From: an uncultured Methanosarcinales archaeon
GTDB taxonomy: Archaea; Nanobdellota; Nanobdellia; Woesearchaeales; CAYSVS01
DNA: 64,000 nucleotides
Assembly: GCA_964479425.1 (NCBI GenBank)
Contig: CAYZMD010000001.1
Span: forward strand, 936-64,935
Direction of reading: 5' to 3'
Below the pieces are notes generated by a model that was not told the origin of the DNA, ran no database searches, and saw nothing but the letters and a program-made list of their open reading frames with translations. A program made the translations under genes and the position numbers. The stretch's first letter is position 1. Every line of letters starts with the position of its first letter. This document shows positions 1 through 59,949 of this stretch, in pieces.

Positions 1-3000
1 CTCATTCTAATAAACTTTACCCTTTTAATATATTTTTCATATATATATGGGGCAGCTAAAATTAAAATGAATACTAATAATAACAAAATACCAAATGGTG
101 CAGACGTACAAACGTTTTCTTTTCGTAGGAATGTTGCACAATCTTTAGGACAATTTATTTCAGTTTCTCCATTTCCACAAAATCCATTTCCACATAGGCA
201 TCCTGTAGCATCATATACTTTATCGGGGTTTACTTTTTTACCAATTATAATATATTCTTTATTACATTTAACATCCATATCGTAATATTTAATATTCCCA
301 AGAATAGCTTTATTCTCAATATCTTTATTAATTTCTTCGGCGACAATTTTTTCAATAAGTCTACGCGAAAGTGGATTATCCAATATTTCTGTATGTGTTT
401 CTTCAATATCCCAGAAATTTTCACATCTATTATTTAGGATAACATCATTTATGGATTGTGCACTTTCAATTGATACAATTCCGTCGTTTATTTCTTTATC
501 TCCAAACATTTCTAGTTTTATTAGTTCTTTCCCAAATTGAAAAGTTTTGGTTCCTGCTATAGAATAATATTTAATGTTTGGAACTATTGGCGTATTTTTT
601 CCATTAATTAAATCTTGCATTCCTGGACTATTCACGTCGACTATTGCAGTTCCTGAATTTATATTTGTTAAAAATTGACTTAGAGAAATTAACGTTTCAG
701 CTCCAGGTGTTCCTTTATTTGGAACCCCAACCAGTATTACTTTTTTTATTTTATTTAAATATGTATATGTTCCTGGTTTTTCTAAATTCACAGCATAACT
801 GTAATACAGGGCGTCTCTTGTTACTAGTCCCCCCATTGAATGTGCTACAATATATGCATAATCAAACTCGTTTGCATTGGCTTCTAAGTGATTAGCTAAT
901 TCAACAGCATTTTCTGATACTGCTTTTTCTGTTGGGTATCCAAAGGTCCAAACTTGCCATGGTTGGTTTGTTAGCCTTATATCTTTCAAAATATTTTCAA
1001 AAGTTTTAGGAGAAGACCCAAATCCGTGAACGAGTAACAAAGCATCTCTTACATAATAGTCAGGTTCATAATTTTTCTTTAATGTACTAAACTTACAGTT
1101 TGCACATATTTTTCCTATTTGAGCAATAACAATTTCTTTATTTCTGTCTAAATATTTATAAGGATTTTTTAATTTTGCAACTAGTTTATCTTGCGTTATT
1201 GTCTCTAGTGGCAACCAGGAGTCCTTTGATGTTTTTATATAAAGCTTATTGCTATTACTTTCAATAATATCTTCTTTTATCTCATCAACAGATATTATGA
1301 TTTCTTCACTCAAATTTACATCAGAAGAAATGGCAATTGGATTTCCAAGTATTTTTAATAGGCTATTTTTTGGTTCTCTCACAATATTTTTTGGTTCTCC
1401 ATAAGTAATTGAGGCTTGTTGGTTAAATTGAAGTTCAAACTCATCTTTTCTAATCCTGCTACCACTAAAGACTGTTTCTATAAATTTTTCTTGTCCCAAT
1501 CTTTTTAGATATTTACTTTGTGTACTAAACTCTTTAAACTCTTCTCCACAACTTAAAGAATTAATTTCTTCTAAATTAACTGTCTTACACTCTCCATTAC
1601 AAGCATACGCTTGAATATCTTCATAATTATTAGGCAAAGATAAGCTTAATTTTCCGCTTTGTTCGCATTTTAGTTCAAATTTGTCAATCAAAATATCATA
1701 ACCCAAAGGAATATTAAAATTTAAATCCGAAGAAAATATTTTAAAATTATTTTGATATGATTTTTTGTCTTTTATGCAAGGCATGTTTTCAACATTAACT
1801 GATTTTATGTCAATAGAGCTTTCTAGTCTCTGTTTAAAAATATCAAAAACACTTGTTTCTTTTTCATTAATTATTTGTATTTCCAGCATGACTATGTCTG
1901 AGACAATTCTTCTGAGCTTTACCCTTATGTCAAATATATCATCATCATCTAAATTAATATTAATTATTTCATTAATAGATAAACCAAAATTAAAAGGCGT
2001 ACTTGCTACGGTCATATTAATTTTATATCCAATTTTATTAATTGTTAATTGATGCTCTTTTCCTTTTACACTGAAATTTCTACTTTCAAACTCAGGAATA
2101 TTTAAAAATATTATTTTAATTCCTGTATTTGAAGGAACTTCAGTTCTTGCTTCTTTTTTACATTTATTACAAGGCCCCCCACAGTCAGTTTTTTTCTCTC
2201 CTTGATTTTTTAATCCATCATTACATGTAGCAAGGCATGGCTGGCACGATCCCCCACAATCAGCACCAGTCTCGCCTTGATTTTTAATATTGTCTGTACA
2301 AGTCCCAATACCTGTACACATTCCATTAACACAAATATCTCCATTATTAGGACATCCGCAACTAGAACAATCATTAATTAGATTTAAATTAAAACCACAA
2401 TATTTTGGTTTTTCTATACTGCACTTTTCAACTTTAGTTCCATCTTTACATTCTAAAAAACATGCAGGACAACTTCCTCCACAATCTACATCGAGTTCAT
2501 CCCCATTTTTAATTTTATCTTTGCAGCTAGCGCAAGGTAGACAATTTCCTCCACAATCAATTCCAAGTTCATTTCCATTCTTTACATTGTCTGTACAGCT
2601 AGACATAACACATAAATTTGCAACACAATAATTGCTCAGGCAATCGATATCTAAAGAACAAGTTCTTCCAGCTCCACAGGCTTGACATGGACCTCCACAG
2701 TCTGTGTCCGTTTCTTCCTGATTTAAAATGGTGTCACTACAGCTTGCTTGTCTACATGTATTATCTTTGCAAAATAGACTTAAGCAGTCATAATTTATGT
2801 TACATTTTTCTCCAACTTTACAAGCATAACAACTTCCTCCACAATCTGTGGATGTTTCATCTCCGTTAAAAACTAAATCATTGCAACTTGCTTCTAAGCA
2901 TTTTCCATTGCTACAAAAATTAGAATTACAATCTGAATTTATATTACAGTTTTTATTTAAACTACAGGAAATACAACTTCCTCCACAATCCACATCAGTT

Positions 3001-5795
3001 TCACCCTGATTTAATGAATCATCTCTACAAGATGCAATTTTGCAAACATTATTTACACAATTCTTTGAATTACAATCAGTATCTATATTACAAATTTTAT
3101 CTAATGCACACTTATTACACAATCCTCCACAATCCACATCGCTTTCTTGATTATTCTTAAAATTATCTGCGCAACTTGCTGCAGAACAAGTATTACTTAT
3201 GCAATTATCATTTAAACAATCATTGTTTATATTGCAACTTTTGCCTTCATCACATTTACCACATATTCCTCCACAATCCACATCTGTTTCATCTTGATTC
3301 TGTAAAATATCTATACAGCTCGGAGTGATGCATTTGCCAAATAGACAAAAGTTATTTGAACAGTCTATGTTTGAATTGCATTTATCATTGTCACTACATT
3401 TATTACAACTTCCACCACAATCTACATCACTTTCATCCTGATTTATTATATTGTCAGTACAACTTTCTTGAGTACAAATATTATTTACGCAATTGTTTGT
3501 TATACAATCATCATTTATACTACAACCTTTTCCTGTCTGACACTTGGAACATATTACTCCTCCACAATCTATAAATGTCTCATCTTGATTTTTATTATTA
3601 TCTGTACAAGACGCTGTGTTACATATGTTATTCAAGCAATAATTACTTGCGCAATCTGTACTTATAGAACAACTTTTTCCAAAACCACACCCAATACATA
3701 ATCCTCCACAATCCATATCGCTTTCGTCTTGATTCAATAAATAATCAGAACAACTTTCTTCAAGGCAGATGTTATTAATACATAGGTTGGTCAGGCAATC
3801 ATCGTTTATGCTACAGCTTTTTCCAACATTACATTCGTTACAATTTCCTCCACAATCTACATCACTTTCTCCATAGTCTTTGATGTCATTATTACATCCT
3901 GATTCTACACACTTACCATTCATACACAATCCTGAAGTACAATCCATACTCCATGTACAATCCTTTCCTATATTGCATCCATCACATATTCCTCCACAAT
4001 CTACATCTGTTTCATCTTGATTTCTTATCCCATCACTACATGTTGGGATGTATGTACAACTTTTACTCTCACTATTGTCTCCTGTACAATCATTATTATC
4101 GGGACACAAACAACTACAGCTTCTTATTTGTGTGCCGCCAGGCAAGCAAGTTTCCCAATCACTACAATCCCAACTAGCAGAGCATATTTCTATTTCTGGT
4201 GGTTCATCATTTCCTCCTCCCCCCCCTCCTCCTGTAGATTGAGGTTCATTATCAATTGTAAATCCATGCAAGGTATTTATTTCATTTTCTCCTAAATCTC
4301 TACATACATAAAATTGAAAGTAAGTGTTCCCTTGTAAAACCGTTCTATTTACTTTGTGTAAAGTTCCATTAGACCATGTAAAATTAGCTCCATTTGTAAA
4401 ATTAAAAACAGAAAACCCATATTCACAATTTGCAAATTCGTTAGTAGATATTGTTAATTCTACTCTTGTTGTTGTATATGATAGAGTAACTCCACTATTT
4501 GGATTTTGTATACTTATTATTGGAGTAGTTGTATCAATAGTAAAATTTACATTTGTTGTATTAAGATTGCCTACGGTGTCGTTAGCATAAGCTAAAAGAG
4601 TATTGCTTCCTTCACTAAATATTCTATAAACAGGATTTGTGTATGTTTCATTTTCAGTTCCATTAAAGAACCAAATATTATTTCCATTGCTTGTTATATT
4701 TACTAGAACAGTTACATTATTGTATGTAATATTTTCTGGGGAATTTATTGATATCGTCGGAGCAGTTGTGTCAAATACAATGCTATAATTATCTTCTTCA
4801 CTCCAATTGTTGTTTTCTGCAGAATCATAACCTAAACAATTCCATTCAAATGTATCTTCATAGGGTAATGTATAAGCAAAAGTTGTAGAGTTTGATACTC
4901 CTAATAAATTTGTTGTGTTAGTATGTATATTATCTTCAGTTGAATTCCATAAATAAAGTGTTAAATTAGCAATACTTGTATCATCTGTAATATTACAGTT
5001 AAATGTTTGTAATGCTGTTGAAGTAACTGTTGCATTTATAGGATTTATTAAATGGATAGTTGGATCAACTATATCTTGTTCATTCTCACTAGTTACCAAT
5101 ATCAATTCAGGAGAATAAGTAATATTTTCTTTCGAATAAAAAGAACAACTACAATTAGAATTCTGATCTCTCCATAATCCAAAAGAGATTATTTTATCTC
5201 CATTTAAAACTTCTATTGTGTAATTGGTTACGTTATATGACATTGTTACCAAAACCAATGCTAAATCTTTATTATCAATTTTTGTACCTAAATTTGGTTT
5301 ATTTGCCCATAACAAAGTACTTTCTAACCATGAATCATCATTAACTTTGTATAATGCAACTTTATTATATTGTGAATCACAGTAGACGTTTCTAACGTTC
5401 ACAACCAAATTTAAAGTTGCATTGATTATATTACTTGAGTTATAGTCTGAAATATTAAATTTTAAAAATGATTGTCTATGAAAGCTAGTGCTATCCCATT
5501 CATCATTATCAACAGTTAATGGTTCTCCGTCATGGTTTGTGTCTCCGTAGAAAATACTTCCACAATATGCATCATCTGTTGGAATAATTCTTACATTGGT
5601 TTCGCTTATTTTTGTCTCTGGAATAAAACCCATAATATTAGACATATCTTCTTTTTCATTAATTAAATTTGTAAAATTAACACTATTATTATCGACAGTT
5701 GCCATTCCCGTTATCCCTGATCCTGTAAATATCATATTCAAAAGTAGCAAAAGAATTCCCCATTCCATGATTTCTTCTACTATTTTTTTATTCAT
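1..5795 (-). CDS. Giant secreted/membrane-anchored multidomain surface protein (partial, C-terminus beyond window start): signal peptide, NxS/T-rich region, poly-Gly hinge, ~13 Cys-rich 48-aa repeats, lipase-like alpha/beta-hydrolase domain, C-terminal TM anchor
   Basis: ATG at 5795-5793 overlaps the stop of the upstream gene (ATGA). By-eye translation runs without a stop to position 1, with frame consistent at both ends. The ORF track lists no minus ORF here, which is expected only if the ORF is open at the window edge. N-term MNKKIVEEIMEWGILLLLLNMIFTGSG. Repeats carry DVDCGG. LLVHGFG lies at ~1018-1035 and GxSxG AHSMGG at ~830-847. C-terminal TM APFGILLLLVFILILAAPYIY at ~50-110. Confidence 0.8.
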   Translation of the reverse strand, partial: MNKKIVEEIMEWGILLLLLNMIFTGSGITGMATVDNNSVNFTNLINEKEDMSNIMGFIPETKISETNVRIIPTDDAYCGSIFYGDTNHDGEPLTVDNDEWDSTSFHRQSFLKFNISDYNSSNIINATLNLVVNVRNVYCDSQYNKVALYKVNDDSWLESTLLWANKPNLGTKIDNKDLALVLVTMSYNVTNYTIEVLNGDKIISFGLWRDQNSNCSCSFYSKENITYSPELILVTSENEQDIVDPTIHLINPINATVTSTALQTFNCNITDDTSIANLTLYLWNSTEDNIHTNTTNLLGVSNSTTFAYTLPYEDTFEWNCLGYDSAENNNWSEEDNYSIVFDTTAPTISINSPENITYNNVTVLVNITSNGNNIWFFNGTENETYTNPVYRIFSEGSNTLLAYANDTVGNLNTTNVNFTIDTTTPIISIQNPNSGVTLSYTTTRVELTISTNEFANCEYGFSVFNFTNGANFTWSNGTLHKVNRTVLQGNTYFQFYVCRDLGENEINTLHGFTIDNEPQSTGGGGGGGNDEPPEIEICSASWDCSDWETCLPGGTQIRSCSCLCPDNNDCTGDNSESKSCTYIPTCSDGIRNQDETDVDCGGICDGCNIGKDCTWSMDCTSGLCMNGKCVESGCNNDIKDYGESDVDCGGNCNECNVGKSCSINDDCLTNLCINNICLEESCSDYLLNQDESDMDCGGLCIGCGFGKSCSISTDCASNYCLNNICNTASCTDNNKNQDETFIDCGGVICSKCQTGKGCSINDDCITNNCVNNICTQESCTDNIINQDESDVDCGGSCNKCSDNDKCNSNIDCSNNFCLFGKCITPSCIDILQNQDETDVDCGGICGKCDEGKSCNINNDCLNDNCISNTCSAASCADNFKNNQESDVDCGGLCNKCALDKICNIDTDCNSKNCVNNVCKIASCRDDSLNQGETDVDCGGSCISCSLNKNCNINSDCNSNFCSNGKCLEASCNDLVFNGDETSTDCGGSCYACKVGEKCNINYDCLSLFCKDNTCRQASCSDTILNQEETDTDCGGPCQACGAGRTCSLDIDCLSNYCVANLCVMSSCTDNVKNGNELGIDCGGNCLPCASCKDKIKNGDELDVDCGGSCPACFLECKDGTKVEKCSIEKPKYCGFNLNLINDCSSCGCPNNGDICVNGMCTGIGTCTDNIKNQGETGADCGGSCQPCLATCNDGLKNQGEKKTDCGGPCNKCKKEARTEVPSNTGIKIIFLNIPEFESRNFSVKGKEHQLTINKIGYKINMTVASTPFNFGLSINEIININLDDDDIFDIRVKLRRIVSDIVMLEIQIINEKETSVFDIFKQRLESSIDIKSVNVENMPCIKDKKSYQNNFKIFSSDLNFNIPLGYDILIDKFELKCEQSGKLSLSLPNNYEDIQAYACNGECKTVNLEEINSLSCGEEFKEFSTQSKYLKRLGQEKFIETVFSGSRIRKDEFELQFNQQASITYGEPKNIVREPKNSLLKILGNPIAISSDVNLSEEIIISVDEIKEDIIESNSNKLYIKTSKDSWLPLETITQDKLVAKLKNPYKYLDRNKEIVIAQIGKICANCKFSTLKKNYEPDYYVRDALLLVHGFGSSPKTFENILKDIRLTNQPWQVWTFGYPTEKAVSENAVELANHLEANANEFDYAYIVAHSMGGLVTRDALYYSYAVNLEKPGTYTYLNKIKKVILVGVPNKGTPGAETLISLSQFLTNINSGTAIVDVNSPGMQDLINGKNTPIVPNIKYYSIAGTKTFQFGKELIKLEMFGDKEINDGIVSIESAQSINDVILNNRCENFWDIEETHTEILDNPLSRRLIEKIVAEEINKDIENKAILGNIKYYDMDVKCNKEYIIIGKKVNPDKVYDATGCLCGNGFCGNGETEINCPKDCATFLRKENVCTSAPFGILLLLVFILILAAPYIYEKYIKRVKFIRM
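2150..4060 (-). repeat. Tandem ~144-nt (48-codon) intragenic coding repeats, about 13 copies, each encoding an 8-Cys module: SCxDNxKNQDETDVDCGGxCxKCxxGKxCxxNxDCxSNxCxNNxC
   Basis: Plus-strand motif tcctccacaatc (revcomp gattgtggagga = DCGG) recurs at ~2471, 2538, 2690, 2838, 2980, 3124, 3265, 3412, 3558, 3702, 3846 and 3994, i.e. a 141-152 nt period from 2538 onward. Confidence 0.8.
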
Positions 5796-6259
5796 TTTTT
5801 CTTTGCCCTATTATATGCTGTCCAGATTGTTTTTGGGTTTCTGTCTATCAATCTAGCAATATCTGTAAATCCTAAGTCATATTCTTTTTTTAGAAATACT
5901 GACATTGATTCTAAAGCAGATAATTTTTTCTTAAAAAACATTTTAATAGGAATATCAAAATCAGAATCATAAACGGTTATTTTATCTTTATTTTTTGCAT
6001 TATTATATGTTGTCCATATTGTTCTGTCGTCTCTATTCAAAATCTTAGCAATTTGACTATATTTATATTTACAATTTTCTTTAAGATATTTAACAACACT
6101 TTCTAGTATACTTAATTCTTTTGTAAAAGCAGATAAAGGAATTTTTTCTCTTCTTTCTTTTAATGAATTTGATTTGTTACTTAATTTTTTAAGAAGCATT
6201 TCTATTAATACCTCTTTATCTACGTTCTCTAGAACTTTTGCAATATTCTCTTTTTTCAT
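5792..6259 (-). CDS. Tandem helix-turn-helix domain protein (two ~45-aa HTH repeats, sigma-70 region 4/LuxR-like), putative DNA-binding regulator
   Basis: Internal duplication LSxLESxVKYLKE...IAKILNRDDRTIWTTYNNAK and LSALESMSVFLKK...IARLIDRNPKTIWTAYNRAKKK. Its stop overlaps the start of the giant gene (tcat at 5792-5795). Confidence 0.55.
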   Translation of the reverse strand: MKKENIAKVLENVDKEVLIEMLLKKLSNKSNSLKERREKIPLSAFTKELSILESVVKYLKENCKYKYSQIAKILNRDDRTIWTTYNNAKNKDKITVYDSDFDIPIKMFFKKKLSALESMSVFLKKEYDLGFTDIARLIDRNPKTIWTAYNRAKKK

Positions 6260-6492: not shown

Positions 6493-7716
6493 TTAAATTA
6501 CATTTATACAATCTGTTGCTAAATTCCCAATTACAATTTCCTGTTCTTGTTGAACATTTTTGTCAATGCCTATTACGTTGTTTAAGACATTAATCATCTT
6601 TCCAGAAATCATAAAATCTTTGATTGGTTTTCCATTATATATTGCATGTTCTACTTGCACGGAAAAATCAGAAGTTAATGAATTACCTGTATGTGCTCCC
6701 ATAATAGATTCTATTAATAATCCGTTTGGAATTTTATTTTTGTCTGAATTAAAGTATACATTGCTAAAGGCAATTCCTCCACCAGAACTATTTCCTGTTG
6801 TTTTTGTCTTTGTATGTGTTGCAGTATTATGATCGAAAATAAAATTTTTCAATTTTCCTTTATCTACTATGCACGTATTTTTACTTGCTGTTCCTTCATC
6901 GTCAAAACTACTTGCTTGCATTCCTTTTAATCCATTATCATGTATAGATATATTTTTCATAATATTTTCATTAATTTTTCCACAGAACAAACTTTTGTGT
7001 TTTTCTACATTCTTTCCATTAAAATTATCAAGTAAACTATATTTTGCTAATTCTGAAAAAACTTCAGGGTTTAAAATTACAACTTTTGGTTTATCACTTA
7101 ATTTTTTAGCATTAAGATAAAACAATGTTTTTTCGTTTACTCCTTGTCCCCAGCCACTTGATGTAAAAAACTGATTGCTTTCTTTGTCGTCAAACCAACT
7201 ACAGACCTTTCCTTTATGTTTTGCAACTGTACTTACTCCAATTCCATATTCTGTAGATTTTTCGCAGATATTTATTCCATTAGAATTAAGAATACAATTT
7301 TCGCTTACATTTGTTTGAACAGCCCCACTACTTAAAATTACATTATCTTTAACAATATCTTTTATTATTTTTCTTGCTTCGTCTACTAATATACTTTCGT
7401 CGATATTTGCAAGTTTTTTATCAAAGTTATTTATTTTCTTATATTTGTCTAGGTTGGGTATTCCATAAAAATATTCTTTATTTGCATTTAATTTTGCAAT
7501 TTTGATTGCTTTTTTTACTAATTCTTTATTGAGTTTATTTCCGCTTGCAAACCCTTCTTTATTATTTTTCCAAACCCTTATTGAATATAATGCTGTTTCT
7601 TTTTCCTGAAATGATTTAATGCTATTATTTTCTATGCTTAGAGATTTTTCTTGATTTTTATCTATATTTACTTGAATATGATCTACAAAATTATCTGCAT
7701 ATTTGATTACATTCAT
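6493..7716 (-). CDS. tldE: TldE/PmbA family metalloprotease component
   Basis: PmbA/TldD-fold C-terminal region (GAHTGNSLTSDFSV...). The internal ATG (MNVIKYADNF) gives an ATGA overlap with the tldD stop. The ORF-track start at 7797 is an upstream extension. Confidence 0.7.
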   Translation of the reverse strand: MNVIKYADNFVDHIQVNIDKNQEKSLSIENNSIKSFQEKETALYSIRVWKNNKEGFASGNKLNKELVKKAIKIAKLNANKEYFYGIPNLDKYKKINNFDKKLANIDESILVDEARKIIKDIVKDNVILSSGAVQTNVSENCILNSNGINICEKSTEYGIGVSTVAKHKGKVCSWFDDKESNQFFTSSGWGQGVNEKTLFYLNAKKLSDKPKVVILNPEVFSELAKYSLLDNFNGKNVEKHKSLFCGKINENIMKNISIHDNGLKGMQASSFDDEGTASKNTCIVDKGKLKNFIFDHNTATHTKTKTTGNSSGGGIAFSNVYFNSDKNKIPNGLLIESIMGAHTGNSLTSDFSVQVEHAIYNGKPIKDFMISGKMINVLNNVIGIDKNVQQEQEIVIGNLATDCINVI

Positions 7717-9065
7717 TGTCCGCCCACCCTTGCTTTTTTTATTAGTATGCTTGGACAAGGACCATATACTGGAACGTATTGTCCTCCTTTTCCACAATGT
7801 CCTGCAAAACTAGGTTCATATTCGTCAGATATCATTGTAATATCATTAAGTATTTTTAAGGTATTTCCTGATAGGCTAACTCCTTTTAATCTTCCTTTAA
7901 GTTCTCCTCTTTCTATGGCAAAGCCTTCTTGTGCTGAGAATGTAAAATTACCAGTTGTTGGATCAACCTGTCCTCCAACGCTTCCTTTTAGAAAAACTCC
8001 TTTCTTTACATTGGAAATAATATCTTCAAATTTATCTTTACCCTTTTTTATATATGTATTTGACATTCTTACTTGAGGCAAAAATGATGCAGATTGAGCT
8101 CTTGCATTTCCTGTTGGCATTGCGTTTAATTTTGCTGCAGTTTCTCTTGAATGCATAAGACCTTTAAGAATTCCTTTTTCAATTAATGTCGTTTTTTGTG
8201 CAGGTATTCCTTCATCATCGTAAAAATAACTACCCCATAAATTAGGCATTGTTGCATCATCATATATATTAATGAATTCTGGAGCTATTTTTTTTCCGCT
8301 TAGTCCTTTTAGACAGCTACTATTTTGTAAAATTTGATCTGCTTCTGCTGCATGCCCTAGTGCTTCATGTATAAAAACATCAGTCAAGGAGCCGTCACAA
8401 ACAACAGGTATATTTCCTGCTTTTGAATGCTTGGCGTTTAACATTTCTAGCGCCGTTTGTGTTGAGCTTTTTATTAACTCTGGCATTCTTTTTGTAACTT
8501 CATATCCTCTTAATTCCCCAACTCTTCCAAAGAAGTTCTCTATTTTATCATTCTTTTTTGTTGTTACTGAAGCTCCAATCATAGTATACTTTAGATTTTG
8601 TTGTATTTCGCTACCTTCAGAATTTACAAATAATAGTTTTTTATCAATTTCATTATAATTAACTAGACAGTTTTTTACTTTATCGTCTTTAATTTTGCTA
8701 TTTTTTAGGACTAGTTTCTTTTTTTCTTCTAGTGTAACATTTTGATTATCTATTTTCCATTTACTTTTTACATTCTTTTTTATTCTTTTTGTTTCAGCGA
8801 ATTCTCTTTTTTCTGTAGTATTTTTATCCATTAATTTAGCAATTTTTAACGCTTTTTTAACTCCTTTCTCAATATTATTAGAATATACAAAACCTTGTCC
8901 ATTGCCAGATATTATTCTAATGGAACTTCCTTGTCTTTGATTAGAATCAAAATTCTTGATATGGTTGTTCCAAGCAGAAACAGATAAATTATCTATATCT
9001 TGTCTTCTAAAGTCCCAATATTTAACATTCTCTTTTTTTAATAGTTTAGAAATTTTATTATACAT
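7713..9065 (-). CDS. tldD: TldD metalloprotease
   Basis: HEALGHAAEAD (HExxxH) zinc motif. TldD-like length (450 aa). Immediately upstream of the tldE/pmbA partner. Confidence 0.75.
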   Translation of the reverse strand: MYNKISKLLKKENVKYWDFRRQDIDNLSVSAWNNHIKNFDSNQRQGSSIRIISGNGQGFVYSNNIEKGVKKALKIAKLMDKNTTEKREFAETKRIKKNVKSKWKIDNQNVTLEEKKKLVLKNSKIKDDKVKNCLVNYNEIDKKLLFVNSEGSEIQQNLKYTMIGASVTTKKNDKIENFFGRVGELRGYEVTKRMPELIKSSTQTALEMLNAKHSKAGNIPVVCDGSLTDVFIHEALGHAAEADQILQNSSCLKGLSGKKIAPEFINIYDDATMPNLWGSYFYDDEGIPAQKTTLIEKGILKGLMHSRETAAKLNAMPTGNARAQSASFLPQVRMSNTYIKKGKDKFEDIISNVKKGVFLKGSVGGQVDPTTGNFTFSAQEGFAIERGELKGRLKGVSLSGNTLKILNDITMISDEYEPSFAGHCGKGGQYVPVYGPCPSILIKKARVGGQ

Positions 9066-54815: not shown

Positions 54816-55226
54816 ATGAAAAAATTCGAATATTTAGAACATACAGCCGACGTTAAAATTAAGGCTTATGGTAATAATTTAGAAGAAACTTTCACAAATG
54901 TAGCTTTAGGGATGTTTAATCATTTAACAGATATTGAAAAAGTTAAACCAGTAATAAAGCACGAATTAAATATTAAGGCTAAAAGAGTAAAATCTCTATT
55001 ATATGATTTTTTAGAGGATTTACTTATTTTACTTGATACTGATGGATTTATTTTAAACAAAATAGAAAAAATATCAATAAAAGAAGAGGGCGAAGAATTT
55101 ATTCTTCATGCAATTTGTTATGGAGATTCTTATAAAAATTATGATGTGAATGGAAATATAAAATCTATAACTTATAATGATATGGAAATTACAGATAAAG
55201 AAATAATTGTGGTGGTAGACGTATGA
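54816..55226 (+). CDS. Archease (RtcB activator)
   Basis: FEYLEHTADVKIKAYGNNLEETFTNVALGMFN is the archease N-term signature. ATGA overlap with rtcB. Confidence 0.85.
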   Translation: MKKFEYLEHTADVKIKAYGNNLEETFTNVALGMFNHLTDIEKVKPVIKHELNIKAKRVKSLLYDFLEDLLILLDTDGFILNKIEKISIKEEGEEFILHAICYGDSYKNYDVNGNIKSITYNDMEITDKEIIVVVDV

Positions 55227-56644
55227 AATTAAAAAAAATAAATGATCATGAATATGAAATTGAAAAAGAAGGGGATATGAATGTTCCTGTTAAAATTTTC
55301 TCATCAGAAAAACTTATGGAAAATTTGAAAGGGGATAAAAGTCTTCAACAAGCTATAAACGTATCAAAGCTTCCAGGAATCTATAAAGCAAGCTGTATGT
55401 GTCCTGATGCTCACCAAGGATATGGCTTTAGTATTGGCGGTGTTGCAGCTTTTGATATAAAGAAAGGTCTAATAACTCCTGGCGGAATTGGATTTGATAT
55501 TAATTGTGGCGTAAGATTACTAACTACAAATTTAACTAAAGAACAAGTAGAACCTAAAATCAAAGAATTATTAGAAGTTTTATTCAAAAGGGTTCCTAGT
55601 GGTGTTGGTAGTGAATCCAAAATAAGATTAACTGACGCTCAGCTTGATTCCGTTCTTAAAAATGGAGGACAATGGGTTCTCGATAATGGATATGGCACAA
55701 AAGATGATGTCGAATTAGCAGAAGAAAACTCTAGAATGCCAGAAGCTGATCCAAGCAAAGTTAGCCAAAAAGCAAAATCAAGGGGTAGAAAACAATTAGG
55801 CACTCTTGGAGCGGGCAATCATTTCTTAGAAATTCAAATTGTTGATGAAATTTTTGATGAAGCCATTGCAAAAGAATTTGGTATTATAAAAAAAGATCAA
55901 ATTGTTATTATGATACATTGTGGAAGTAGGGGGTTAGGGCACCAAGTCTGCTCAGATTACTTAAGACGAATGGAAGAAGAAAATCCAGAGCTAGCAGATT
56001 CTTTACCTGAAAGAGATTTAGTTTACGCTCCTGCAGGAACAGAATTAGCAGAGGATTATTTTAAAGCAATGTCTGCTGCGGCTAATTATGCGTGGGCCAA
56101 TAGAACTGTTATAGCACACGAAGTTAGAGAAGGATTTAAGCAAGTTTTTGGCGACGTTGAAGTTTTACCAGTATATGATGTCGCACATAATATTGCAAAA
56201 AAAGAAAAACACATTATTGATGGTGAAGAAAAAGAAGTTTATTTGCACAGAAAAGGTGCAACTAGAAGCTTTCCTCCAGGACATCCTGACTTACCTGAAA
56301 AATATAAAAAAACAGGCCAGCCAGTATTAATTCCTGGAAGTATGGGAACCTCTTCATATATTTTGGTTGGCACACAAAAAGCAATGGAAGAATCTTTTGG
56401 TTCAACGGCGCACGGAGCGGGCAGAGCAATGTCAAGGCATGCAACAAGACAATTTAGAGCTGAAGATATTAAAAAAGAACTTGAAGAAAAACATATTTAT
56501 GTTAAATCAGCGTCGTGGAAAGGTATAGCAGAAGAATGTCCTCAAGCTTATAAAGATATAGACGAAGTAATTAAAGTTAGTCATGAAGCAGGAATCGGAA
56601 AATTAGTTGCTAAAGTTAGACCTTTAGGAGTTATTAAAGGTTAA
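55223..56644 (+). CDS. rtcB: RtcB RNA 3'-phosphate/tRNA-splicing ligase
   Basis: CMCPDAHQGYGFSIGGVAAFD, GAGNHFLEIQ and HCGSRGLGHQ metal-site motifs. 473 aa. Confidence 0.9.
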   Translation: MKLKKINDHEYEIEKEGDMNVPVKIFSSEKLMENLKGDKSLQQAINVSKLPGIYKASCMCPDAHQGYGFSIGGVAAFDIKKGLITPGGIGFDINCGVRLLTTNLTKEQVEPKIKELLEVLFKRVPSGVGSESKIRLTDAQLDSVLKNGGQWVLDNGYGTKDDVELAEENSRMPEADPSKVSQKAKSRGRKQLGTLGAGNHFLEIQIVDEIFDEAIAKEFGIIKKDQIVIMIHCGSRGLGHQVCSDYLRRMEEENPELADSLPERDLVYAPAGTELAEDYFKAMSAAANYAWANRTVIAHEVREGFKQVFGDVEVLPVYDVAHNIAKKEKHIIDGEEKEVYLHRKGATRSFPPGHPDLPEKYKKTGQPVLIPGSMGTSSYILVGTQKAMEESFGSTAHGAGRAMSRHATRQFRAEDIKKELEEKHIYVKSASWKGIAEECPQAYKDIDEVIKVSHEAGIGKLVAKVRPLGVIKG

Positions 56645-58285: not shown

Positions 58286-58858
58286 CTATCTTTTCTTAAT
58301 ATTAACAATATTTCCTTCTAAATGAATAATATTACTAGCACTACCCTTTTTCTCGCCTTCATATATGCAGAAATGAACGCTTTTTTCAATATCGGGGTCT
58401 ATATCTTCTTGTGTTGTCATGAAGCTTTTACCAGTAATATTTGCACTAGTAGTACAGATTGGTTTTCCATATGATTGTACAAATCCTGAGAACCAATGGT
58501 TTGGAATTCTAACTCCTAAAGAATTTAATTCATGATTTACTAATTTACTTACACAATTATTATTTTTTAATTTTAAAATTAAAGTATATGGTCCAGGCAA
58601 TTTATCTATCCATTCTTGTGCCTCAGAATTAACCTCACAATTTTTAATAATCCATTCCTTGCTTGGAGCAATCACAGATATTGGTTTTGTTGGCATCTGT
58701 TTTATTTCTCTTAATTTTTCGACTGCTTTGTCAGAAGTGGCGTCACATCCGAGTCCATAAATTGTATCAGTAGGGTGAATAAATACATGTCCATCATCCA
58801 TTTCTTTAGCAAAAATATGTCCTTCGTACTGTAATTCTTCTTTTGTGACGTTTTTCAT
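58286..58858 (-). CDS. tsaC: L-threonylcarbamoyladenylate synthase (YrdC/Sua5 family, short form)
   Basis: HVFIHPTDTIYGLGCDA ... ISVIAP signature. Track start is TTG at 58939; ATG at 58858 (MKNVTKEEL). Confidence 0.75.
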   Translation of the reverse strand: MKNVTKEELQYEGHIFAKEMDDGHVFIHPTDTIYGLGCDATSDKAVEKLREIKQMPTKPISVIAPSKEWIIKNCEVNSEAQEWIDKLPGPYTLILKLKNNNCVSKLVNHELNSLGVRIPNHWFSGFVQSYGKPICTTSANITGKSFMTTQEDIDPDIEKSVHFCIYEGEKKGSASNIIHLEGNIVNIKKR

Positions 58859-58935
58859 ATTAATGGTTAAAGTACTGGCATTTTTAAAGCTTTTGCCATT
58901 AGGATAAAGTAGAAAATAAAAGGCGCTGATGGACC

Positions 58936-58958
58936 TCAACCTTTTAAGAAAAGGTTGA
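58936..58958. other. Perfect 10-bp hairpin TCAACCTTTTaagAAAAGGTTGA
   Basis: Downstream of tRNA-Cys on the minus strand, after an oligo-T tract; ~80 nt upstream of the tsaC ATG. Confidence 0.4.
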
Positions 58959-59003
58959 CCAAAACATAGTATTTCGTTTAACTCAATACATAAAGAAAAT
59001 AAA

Positions 59004-59075
59004 AGGCGCCGCTGGGACTTGAACCCAGGATCATCGGGTTGCAGCCGAACGCCTTAGCCGCTTGGCCACGGCGCC
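59004..59075 (-). tRNA. tRNA-Cys (GCA), no intron, no encoded CCA
   Basis: Minus-strand GGCGCCGTGGCCAAGCGGCTAAGGCGTTCGGCTGCAACCCGATGATCCTGGGTTCAAGTCCCAGCGGCGCC+U73. 7-bp acceptor stem. T-loop TTCAAGT. Anticodon loop CTGCAAC. Confidence 0.85.
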
Positions 59076-59094
59076 ATGAATATGAAATTAAAAA

Positions 59095-59250
59095 CGGGCC
59101 TGGAGGGATTCGAACCCACGGTCTATAGCTTACTTCTAAGCTTGCTTTGAAGTATTACAAAGCTTGCCTTTGAAATAGAAGGCTATCGCCCTATTTGCAC
59201 TACGTGCTAATCCTTGCGGTTAGCAAGTATCCAGGCTAGGCTACAGGCCC
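59095..59250 (-). tRNA. tRNA-Arg (UCU) with two putative introns: ~36 nt in the D-loop region (59192-59227) and 45 nt at the canonical 37/38 site (59131-59175)
   Basis: 155 nt between perfectly paired acceptor arms GGGCCTG/CAGGCCC, with T-arm GTGGGTTCGAATCCCTC. Anticodon arm ATAGC-CTTCTA|intron|A-GCTAT. The intron contains TAGAAG, complementary to the anticodon loop (BHB-like). Confidence 0.7.
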
Positions 59251-59328
59251 ATTGAACAGAAGAACTTTCTGTTAGTTTTTAAATATTTCGTACAAAACTA
59301 TTTAATTAGCAAAATACTTCTTAATTAT

Positions 59329-59949
59329 ATGTCCATTATTTCACTTATTCCGAGAAAAGTTAAAGCAAAAGGAAGCAATCCTAATTCTATTTTAGATTAT
59401 ACTTTATTGGAAAATTTTTTGTTTGAAGAAGAATTGATGTCCATTAGGCTACTTGATTCAGTAGATAAAATTTCAATAAATAAAGCACCAATAATTTTGT
59501 TTTATCCAGGCTGTGGTTCAGACATCTTAACACCATTAATTTATTTAGAGAAATTGTTTTGTAATAATAATTATTTTCATTTTATTTTTAATGATATTGA
59601 CAATACTTTTGATTTAATCAAAACAATTTTAGATGATGTTCAAATTCCATTTTCAGAAGATAATTCAAAAATCAATTTTTTTATTAATAATAAAAACATT
59701 ACTTTGGAATTTTTACAAGGAGATGTCTTTGAATTAATATATAATATAAAATATGATATTTATTTTGAAAGAACATTTAGAATAATGAAAGATAATCATC
59801 CAGAATATGAACATATTGCATATAATAATCTTAATAAAAATGGGGTTCTAATTTCTGACTCCGGTTTTCATAACGTAAAAAAACTTAATATTCCTAAGGA
59901 ATTAAGCGCTTACAAAGAAATGGTTATAGCAATAAAGGAACAGGATTAG
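59329..59949 (+). CDS. Hypothetical protein (possible Rossmann/methyltransferase-like PGCGSD motif)
   Basis: ILFYPGCGSDILTPL resembles SAM-MTase motif I; weak. Confidence 0.35.
   Translation: MSIISLIPRKVKAKGSNPNSILDYTLLENFLFEEELMSIRLLDSVDKISINKAPIILFYPGCGSDILTPLIYLEKLFCNNNYFHFIFNDIDNTFDLIKTILDDVQIPFSEDNSKINFFINNKNITLEFLQGDVFELIYNIKYDIYFERTFRIMKDNHPEYEHIAYNNLNKNGVLISDSGFHNVKKLNIPKELSAYKEMVIAIKEQD

Follow-up and report, generated by a model that had tools for sequence, protein, structure and literature searches.

Results

A doubly interrupted tRNA-Arg(UCU) gene

The 64,000-nt stretch of DNA analyzed here (contig CAYZMD010000001.1 of GenBank assembly GCA_964479425.1, positions 936 to 64,935 of the forward strand; hereafter, the window) carries a locus that, judging by its sequence and that of its relatives, is very likely a tRNA-Arg(UCU) gene that is functional though interrupted twice, in a DPANN archaeon (Woesearchaeota/Nanoarchaeota-type). 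Such a gene, with one intron at the canonical position 37/38 and another in the D-loop, had been proposed in an earlier note made from the letters of the stretch, and the proposal is sustained by (i) splicing in silico, (ii) relatives that occupy the same locus with and without introns, and (iii) covariation around the D-loop insert. The acceptor, anticodon and T arms named in that note can all be found in the sequence, where they lie on the minus strand (59250 to 59095); the length of 155 nt that it gave holds without the discriminator base, whereas the gene measures 156 nt with it.

Read along the minus strand, the precursor begins with GGGCCUG UA GCCU AGCCUGG, resumes after a 36-nt insert with AUA GGGC G AUAGC CUUCUA and, after a 45-nt insert, ends with A GCUAU AGACC GUGGG UUCGAAU CCCUC CAGGCCC G. 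The acceptor stem (GGGCCTG/CAGGCCC, discriminator G) and the D-stem (GCCT/GGGC) are accompanied by an anticodon stem (ATAGC/GCTAT) around CTTCTA...A and by a T-arm (GTGGG-TTCGAAT-CCCTC) with a U50·U64 mismatch; CCA is not encoded, and a T5 run follows the discriminator. All three exons (Table 1) follow one another in order within 156 nt and share a single conserved promoter, which sets this gene apart from split or permuted tRNA genes.

Neither ARAGORN with default settings nor Rfam at the gathering threshold calls the gene, the only tRNA reported by them being the adjacent tRNA-Cys, and a permissive Rfam scan of 58900-59400 yielded nothing else meaningful. In the ARAGORN intron search, suggested in the earlier note as a check, the raw sequence is read as a selenocysteine tRNA, SeC(tca), with a 70-nt intron. 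Once the D insert alone is removed, the call becomes a tRNA-Arg(tct) whose 45-nt intron sits at 37/38. Deletion of both inserts in silico results in a clean 75-nt tRNA-Arg(tct) with a canonical cloverleaf. This spliced product equals the intronless gene of a relative (locus L017) save for a compensatory change of the 29-41 pair (U-A in the window, C-G in L017). Given this match, and given that the quality of the bulge-helix-bulge (BHB) motifs at both inserts is rarely reached by shuffled introns, the gene is beyond what chance would produce.

Table 1. Features of the window, with the tRNA-Arg(UCU) gene listed in the order of transcription
Feature	Positions	Strand	Description	Basis
Archaeal promoter	59276..59290	-	BRE-like (B recognition element) CGAAA at ~59286-59290 and TATA box TTTAAAAA at 59276-59283; -40 to -26 from position 1	
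tRNA-Arg exon 1	59231..59250	-	tRNA positions 1-19: acceptor 5' GGGCCUG, U8 A9, D-stem 5' GCCU, D-loop AGCCUGG through G19	Sequence; ARAGORN on spliced construct; cut supported by covariation in 52 genes
Intron 1 (D-loop)	59195..59230	-	36 nt, between G19 and A20	BHB scan, shuffles, homologue in locus L016, covariation
tRNA-Arg exon 2	59176..59194	-	Positions 20-37: A20 U20a A21, D-stem 3' GGGC, G26, AUAGC, loop CUUCUA with anticodon UCU	Sequence, ARAGORN; equals intronless L017 gene save U29
Intron 2 (canonical 37/38)	59131..59175	-	45 nt	ARAGORN, BHB scan, 37 relatives, constrained fold, L016 alignment
tRNA-Arg exon 3	59095..59130	-	Positions 38-73: A38, GCUAU, variable loop AGACC, GUGGG-UUCGAAU-CCCUC, CAGGCCC, discriminator G	Sequence, ARAGORN; 24-nt 3' part matches GTDB contigs exactly
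tRNA-Cys(GCA)	59004..59075	-	Intronless; 19 nt downstream of tRNA-Arg, T5 run between	ARAGORN; Rfam 59 bits
Archease	54816..55226	+	4-nt overlap with RtcB	Pfam PF01951, E 1e-34
RtcB RNA ligase	55223..56644	+	4-nt overlap with archease	Pfam PF01139, E 1e-172
Sua5/TsaC-family gene	58286..58939	-	Directly downstream of the tRNA-Arg/tRNA-Cys pair	TIGR00057, 129 bits
206-aa open reading frame	59329..59949	+	Divergent from the tRNA-Arg promoter	
PmbA/TldD-family metallopeptidase gene	6493..7797	-		
PmbA/TldD-family metallopeptidase gene	7713..9065	-		
Giant open reading frame	3..5807	-	≥1935 aa, truncated by the left window edge; N-terminal CBM96 domain and DUF7379	
Tandem repeat	2468..2602		72-nt unit, 1.9 copies, within the giant open reading frame	

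Several features of the locus bear on its use. The motif cGAAAtaTTTAAAAg is found at -40 to -26 in ~65 distinct related genes, of which 50 nt upstream were compared, with column frequencies to 0.8, and its window version reads CGAAATATTTAAAAA at 59276-59290. Between the window and its relatives, the tRNA-Arg exons stay fixed while the introns diverge. Among the arginine codons in open reading frames (ORFs) of the window, AGA accounts for 81% and AGG for 12%; the gene is therefore heavily needed and, with AGA alone at 81%, its splicing must be efficient.

Relatives at the same locus

The 24-nt 3' part of the gene, searched for exact matches among GTDB genome contigs, was found at 22 loci, mostly in metagenome-assembled genomes of Woesearchaeota, several of which are labelled 'uncultured Methanosarcinales' in third-party assemblies. 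As many as 17 of these 22 loci are tRNA-Arg(TCT) genes: six are intronless (75 nt), and the others include genes with the 37/38 insert alone or with an insert in the anticodon stem. One relative, L016, has both inserts at the window's sites, with exons equal to those of the window except for the compensatory 29-41 pair and with diverged introns (a compensatory hairpin change in intron 1, and intron 2 differing in length by 21 nt). The intronless L017 gene reaches 67.4 bits on Rfam RF00005 (gathering score 29), and L017 and L003 fall together at 67-68 bits; in both, a second tRNA lies within ~8 nt after tRNA-Arg. L016 is likewise paired and, as in the window, Rfam detects the second tRNA alone.

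A gene-order comparison (tblastn of window proteins against the loci) revealed an arrangement common to the window and L017, namely TopoVI-B, TopoVI-A, small ORFs, tRNA-Arg, second tRNA, Sua5, metallophosphoesterase, RtcB and archease. The identity of TopoVI-A to the window protein is 87% in L017 and 88% in L016, the contig of the latter (4 kb) spanning TopoVI-B to Sua5. Close relatives at one locus thus contain either no introns (L017, gene at 3217-3291) or two (window, L016).

The U50·U64 mismatch of the T-stem (GUGGG/CCCUC; window 59095-59147) is common to high-scoring intronless relatives, and it is also seen in two tRNA(CAU) genes of Planctomycetota whose 3' 24-mer is identical.

The D-loop intron

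Intron 1 (AUACUUGCUAACCGCAAGGAUUAGCACGUAGUGCAA, 36 nt) folds as a long hairpin (UAC/GUA, a 1x1 mismatch, then UGCUAA-CC/GG-A-UUAGCA) capped by a GCAA tetraloop, and its last six bases, GUGC and AA, contribute the 3' side of the central BHB helix plus a bulge. Due to an A-U-A repeat, the insert can be placed at four equivalent positions that give an identical mature sequence. The BHB geometry combined with covariation in the family points to cuts (marked ^ hereafter) at G19^A (59231/59230) and A^A20 (59195/59194). The ~36-nt D-loop insert described earlier is thus present and leads to the same mature product, but its boundary shifts to 19/20, three bases upstream of the former placement after ...GGATA. 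In the window, the BHB scan gave 3 of 4 pairs in the central helix H (GCCU/GUGC), 4 bp in the outer helix h and 3 bp in the inner helix h', the outer helix being formed either by A14-U20a with the D-stem or by a 4-bp alternative (CCUA/UAGG), with bulges GG^A and AA^A. Shuffling intron 1 at fixed cut sites matched the observed quality in 0.4% of trials. Intron 1 of L016 is homologous to that of the window, one hairpin pair having changed from A-U to G-C in a compensatory manner.

A broader sample came from a metagenome scan in which the exon sequence alone was specified and 20-50 extra bases were required in the D-loop, yielding 60 further loci with a D-loop insert; since the pattern constrained only exons, the BHB structure is not built into the result. 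All cuts leaving a D-loop of 8-12 nt were then tried on 58 distinct D-insert genes. The best cut pair is alike in 43 of them, with the 5' cut after G19 and the 3' cut three bases before the 3' strand of the D-stem (..NN^A-U-A-RKGC); in this majority register, G15-U17a pair with the four intron bases preceding the last two, in most genes at all four positions. Five genes (L006, L019, L040, L042 and L074) use a second register with the cut at U20a^A21 and a central helix formed by C17-G19 (CUGG with CCGG, CUGG or CCAG), the mature D-loop being unchanged. The existence of two registers, 19/20 and 20a/21, suggests independent insertions into one loop.

For the covariation analysis, a gap-free core alignment was made of the 52 non-class-II sequences, all placed in the first register. 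With cuts at G19^ and ^A20, 94.1% of BHB cells form standard pairs, compared to 78% in column-shuffled controls (0 of 500 reach the observed value) and 25-44% after sliding the 3' partners by 1-3 columns. All four inner-helix pairs show changes on both sides, and pair 16 of the central helix alternates between C-G (34), U-A (10) and U-G (4). On this evidence of pairing and covariation across the family of 52, the D-loop insert is a real BHB intron, of relaxed form in the window, with a predicted cut after G19.

The 37/38 intron

For intron 2, the BHB scan gave H 4/4, h 5 and h' 1: C32-C35 (CUUC) pair with GAAG, which is followed by the last two intron bases, UA, and the 3' bulge U-A^A38 lies beside the 5-bp anticodon stem. 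In a BHB-constrained fold, the next helix (AGGC/GCUU) forms across an 8x1 internal loop; CUUCUA/UAGAAG can form a 6-bp helix instead. The former description of a 'classic' motif is correct in the position, the central helix and the 3' bulge, but not in the 5' bulge, closed by 1 bp. By its pairing pattern, the motif is relaxed, hBH/BHL-like, and not a strict BHB. Shuffled versions of intron 2 at fixed cut sites match its BHB quality in 0.3-0.8% of trials. In a set of 37 distinct 37/38 introns from related genes, at least three of the four central-helix pairs form in 95% and all four in 51%, versus a mean of 1.3-2.3 pairs in slid-register controls, and an inner helix of at least 2 bp occurs in just 23 of the 37. 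An internal direct repeat in intron 2 (UUCAAAGGCAAGCUU ... UUCAAAGCAAGCUU; UUCAAAG(G)CAAGCUU occurs twice) gives the 45-nt intron the look of the L016 intron (24 nt) enlarged by an internal duplication of ~21 nt.

Distribution of inserts among related genes

The set of ~65 related genes, from Woesearchaeota-like genomes and metagenomes, carries from none to three inserts, with the D-loop, 37/38 and the T-loop as hot spots. Three inserts (D-loop, 37/38 and T-loop) are present in 18 of 62 parsed genes, three being also the maximum number of introns seen, in keeping with the literature. Those in the T-loop, 14-100 nt in length, are compatible with a BHB at 59/60 that has a UUCR/YGAA central helix, bulges AA^N and AG^U60, and the T-stem as the outer helix. 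An ongoing hot spot of gain and loss of BHB introns in tRNA-Arg(UCU) of a broad Woesearchaeota-like clade is a possible, though rather doubtful, reading of this distribution.

T-loop introns occur in 19 loci (L025-L028, L032, L040, L043, L051, L052, L054, L055, L057, L059, L062-L064, L073, L074 and L081), as a third intron in 18 of them (genes up to 240 nt) and together with a D-loop intron only in L026. Other sites include the 5' strand of the anticodon stem (~29/30-30/31; L004 and L022) and the 3' side of the anticodon stem or the variable region (L042, L077 and L083).

Weighing of alternative explanations

A number of observations weigh against a functional, doubly spliced tRNA-Arg. In the D-loop motif of the window, the central helix contains a C17·U mismatch, common to 10 of 51 distinct relatives; in intron 2, one U-A pair is all that closes the 5' bulge; and a second, uninterrupted tRNA-Arg(UCU) may exist elsewhere in the genome, beyond the window. 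The splicing endonuclease EndA (PF01974/PF02778) was not found among the window ORFs scanned with Pfam, a scan with the ribosomal operon at 32.5-43.8 kb outside it. It should also be kept in mind that we infer splicing and the exact cut sites from sequence. Folding of each exon-intron junction, another check from the earlier note, gave BHB-constrained folds with both motifs relaxed, but the unconstrained minimum free energy (MFE) structure lacks the BHB, and the two solutions for the precursor (-45.1 constrained vs. -56.2 unconstrained) are 11 kcal/mol apart. The MFE structure of the mature tRNA-Arg is not a cloverleaf either, and thermodynamic prediction is therefore uninformative here. BHB scanning of single sequences likewise produces many chance matches of similar score, so that the splice assignment is secure only by virtue of the required valid mature product and the comparative data.

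Some of these features might be taken as signs of a decaying tRNA pseudogene with two unrelated insertions, never processed, as the gene is not called by default ARAGORN and Rfam, both BHB motifs are imperfect, and the T-stem has the U50·U64 mismatch. Yet the exons equal those of relatives save for one compensatory pair while the introns diverge, dozens of lineages carry inserts at these sites, where the BHB covaries, the promoter is conserved, the T-stem mismatch is shared with intronless high-scoring relatives, and the tRNA would serve 81-93% of arginine codons; decay is, thus, very unlikely. A different exon structure (SeC(tca) with one long intron, or a D insert that is cut at 21/22 or kept as an enlarged D-arm) also appears quite unlikely. 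The SeC(tca) call, made by ARAGORN -i on the raw sequence with a 70-nt intron, i(31,70), was rejected as an artefact: it implies a D-stem of 3 bp, of which only two are standard pairs, together with a long extra arm that pairs poorly, and relatives of it are lacking, whereas the Arg(UCU) model matches intronless relatives base for base, save the 29-41 pair. As to the D insert, the A-U-A repeat leaves four cut positions for one product, and a register with the cut after A21 (central helix UGGA/UGCA) scores about equally on the window alone. This register was nevertheless rejected, since its 12-nt D-loop is absent from intronless relatives and it fails in L039 and across the family, whereas 52 sequences conform to the 19/20 register, with 94% pairing.

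Removal of the inserts without EndA and BHB motifs, by group I-like self-splicing or by RNase-mediated trimming, is extremely unlikely. Group I introns are reported in archaea including Woesearchaeota (PMC6125680), and no EndA was seen in the window. However, a group I intron takes at least ~200 nt with a P1-P9 core, and the inserts of 36 and 45 nt fall far below this size; relaxing the Rfam limit to E 10 brought up no intron family in 58900-59400; what is conserved and covaries is precisely the 3-4-3 BHB geometry; and the window encodes both RtcB and archease, the pair that ligates EndA products. Box C/D guide motifs (RUGAUGA / CUGA), by which an intron of the tRNA-Trp type would be recognized, are in neither intron, as judged by direct reading of the sequence.

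Splicing machinery and proposed pathway

The archease-rtcB pair noted earlier near the gene was confirmed by Pfam matches to both proteins, the end of RtcB being 2.45 kb away from tRNA-Arg. This proximity is a matter of conserved gene order and no evidence of functional coupling to the introns, since L017, with its intronless tRNA-Arg, keeps the same RtcB-archease neighbourhood. A regular expression for EndA motifs had no match in the window or in any of the loci, which is weak evidence. The ORF of 206 aa beside tRNA-Arg was considered as an unrecognized EndA and rejected in view of its predicted class I S-adenosylmethionine (SAM)-methyltransferase fold. Signs of an archaeal host in the window include Topo VI A/B, eRF1-family domains, RFC, a ribosomal protein operon and 30% GC, and homologs of a neighbouring protein are named Woesearchaeota, Nanoarchaeota or Nanoarchaeia.

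In archaeal tRNA splicing, EndA cuts the bulges of BHB motifs, leaving a 2',3'-cyclic phosphate and a 5'-OH, and RtcB with archease performs the ligation. The following pathway can be proposed for the window gene. A precursor of ~156 nt would be transcribed from the gene's own BRE/TATA promoter, known from its conservation. Each insert would fold with the flanking exon sequence into a BHB, the pairing being visible in the sequence for both and in covariation also for the D-loop. In the D-loop, G15-U17a would pair with intron GUGC, exposing 3-nt bulges G18 G19^A and A A^A20 with the intron hairpin as the inner helix; at 37/38, C32-C35 would pair with GAAG, and U A^A38 would form the 3' bulge beside the anticodon stem. 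EndA would then cut both bulges of each motif, and RtcB with archease would join the three exons, as suggested by the established roles of these families. The CCA end, not being encoded, would be added post-transcriptionally, completing a 75-nt tRNA that reads AGA and AGG.

Neighbouring features

A T-loop motif search of the window revealed no hidden tRNA besides tRNA-Arg and tRNA-Cys. The Sua5/TsaC-family protein next to this pair (L-threonylcarbamoyladenylate synthase) acts in the synthesis of N6-threonylcarbamoyladenosine (t6A) at position 37, a modification received by ANN-decoding tRNAs. The tRNA-Arg(UCU) has A37 and belongs to this class; the presence of Sua5 beside it is probably just conserved gene order.

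The divergent 206-aa ORF, which also lies beside tRNA-Arg in several relatives, matches nothing in Pfam or NCBIfam, and its 158 homologs are all 'hypothetical', the named ones belonging to Woesearchaeota, Nanoarchaeota or an unclassified archaeon. AlphaFold (predicted local distance difference test score 91.8) and Foldseek assign a class I SAM-methyltransferase fold, the Foldseek matches being distant: TrmR 8k1f (E 9e-6, TM ~0.47), then Dot1L, MnmC and Trm1. With the invariant motifs YPGCGxD, D89, YFE..FRI and DSGF, this predicted protein may represent an undescribed lineage-specific methyltransferase family.

At the other end of the window, the giant ORF probably encodes a large surface protein. 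The two adjacent PmbA/TldD-family ORFs overlap by ~85 nt when the first uses an upstream TTG start. An apparent scarcity of genes in the first 7.7 kb was dismissed as an artefact of ORF selection, as the giant ORF and the second PmbA/TldD gene are located there.

Discussion

Disrupted archaeal tRNA genes with non-canonical BHB introns were reportedly described by Sugahara in 2007/2008. Non-canonical introns at 20/21, 22/23, 25/26, 29/30, 59/60 and other positions are known in archaeal tRNAs, also together with a canonical intron in one gene (PMC4090602), with up to three introns per gene (PMC3239211), and genes with multiple introns have been described in Thermoproteales/Crenarchaeota, Nanoarchaeota, ARMAN-2 and other DPANN (Fujishima 2011, PMC3239211; Yoshihisa 2014, PMC4090602; Kaneta 2018, PMC5829648). 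Within DPANN, tRNA genes were predicted by Kaneta 2018 for one Woesearchaeota and one Pacearchaeota genome, disrupted tRNA genes were found, and incomplete tRNA sets were taken to point to disrupted genes still to be identified (PMC5829648). The tRNA-Arg of the window is a case of this kind. No paper on this tRNA-Arg(UCU) intron family was found in our full-text literature searches, which is not proof of absence.

The window gene resembles the known multi-intron archaeal tRNAs in being a continuous gene with a canonical 37/38 and one non-canonical intron (a count within the range of 1-3), in having at each junction a 3-4-3 BHB or a relaxed motif (at 37/38, hBH/BHL-like) and an archaeal host with RtcB and archease, and in its short introns (36 and 45 nt), which diverge fast next to fixed exons. 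It differs from those examples in its Woesearchaeota-like DPANN host and in its inferred D-loop site, 19/20 (20a/21 in five relatives), the example list of PMC4090602 naming 20/21, 22/23, 'etc.' Disrupted tRNAs of ARMAN-2 (Ca. Micrarchaeum) are cut by a broad-specificity epsilon2 EndA (PMC3239211; PMC3488258) and have in common with the window gene a DPANN host, non-canonical sites and relaxed hBH/BHL-type motifs, as well as T-loop introns at 59/60 in relatives of the window gene; however, the ARMAN examples described are T-loop introns, unlike the D-loop intron of the window. Compared to strict 37/38 introns (Haloferax tRNA-Trp, M. jannaschii substrates), intron 2 shares the site, the pairing of bases 32-35 with the intron and a 3' splice site in a 3-nt bulge by the anticodon stem, but it departs from a strict hBHBh' in that its 5' site falls either within an enlarged loop or where a 6-bp helix ends, with a closing helix of 1 bp.

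Relaxed hBH/HBh' motifs and non-canonical positions accompany (alpha-beta)2 or epsilon2 endonucleases (PMC4090602, PMC3239211), while several DPANN lineages are reported to have alpha4-type enzymes with an 'L3' insert, not epsilon2 (Kaneta 2018; PMC5829648). In the light of this literature, a requirement for an endonuclease of relaxed specificity, as proposed in the earlier note, is plausible.

Overall, the tRNA-Arg(UCU) example adds nothing new in mechanism and provides a fresh case of a gene type already reported in DPANN archaea. For annotation, it is of consequence that default tRNA finders miss a gene that should decode >80% of the arginine codons in the window; DPANN genomes annotated by such finders would seem to be devoid of an essential tRNA. 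The set of ~65 genes with 0-3 introns constitutes a dataset for studying the turnover of tRNA introns and the substrate range of the DPANN splicing endonuclease. If the hot-spot interpretation is true, this family could be used to study the movement of BHB introns and, if in addition the endonuclease is of the alpha4 type with L3, the family would represent a natural substrate set for the action of an alpha4 enzyme on relaxed non-canonical BHB introns.

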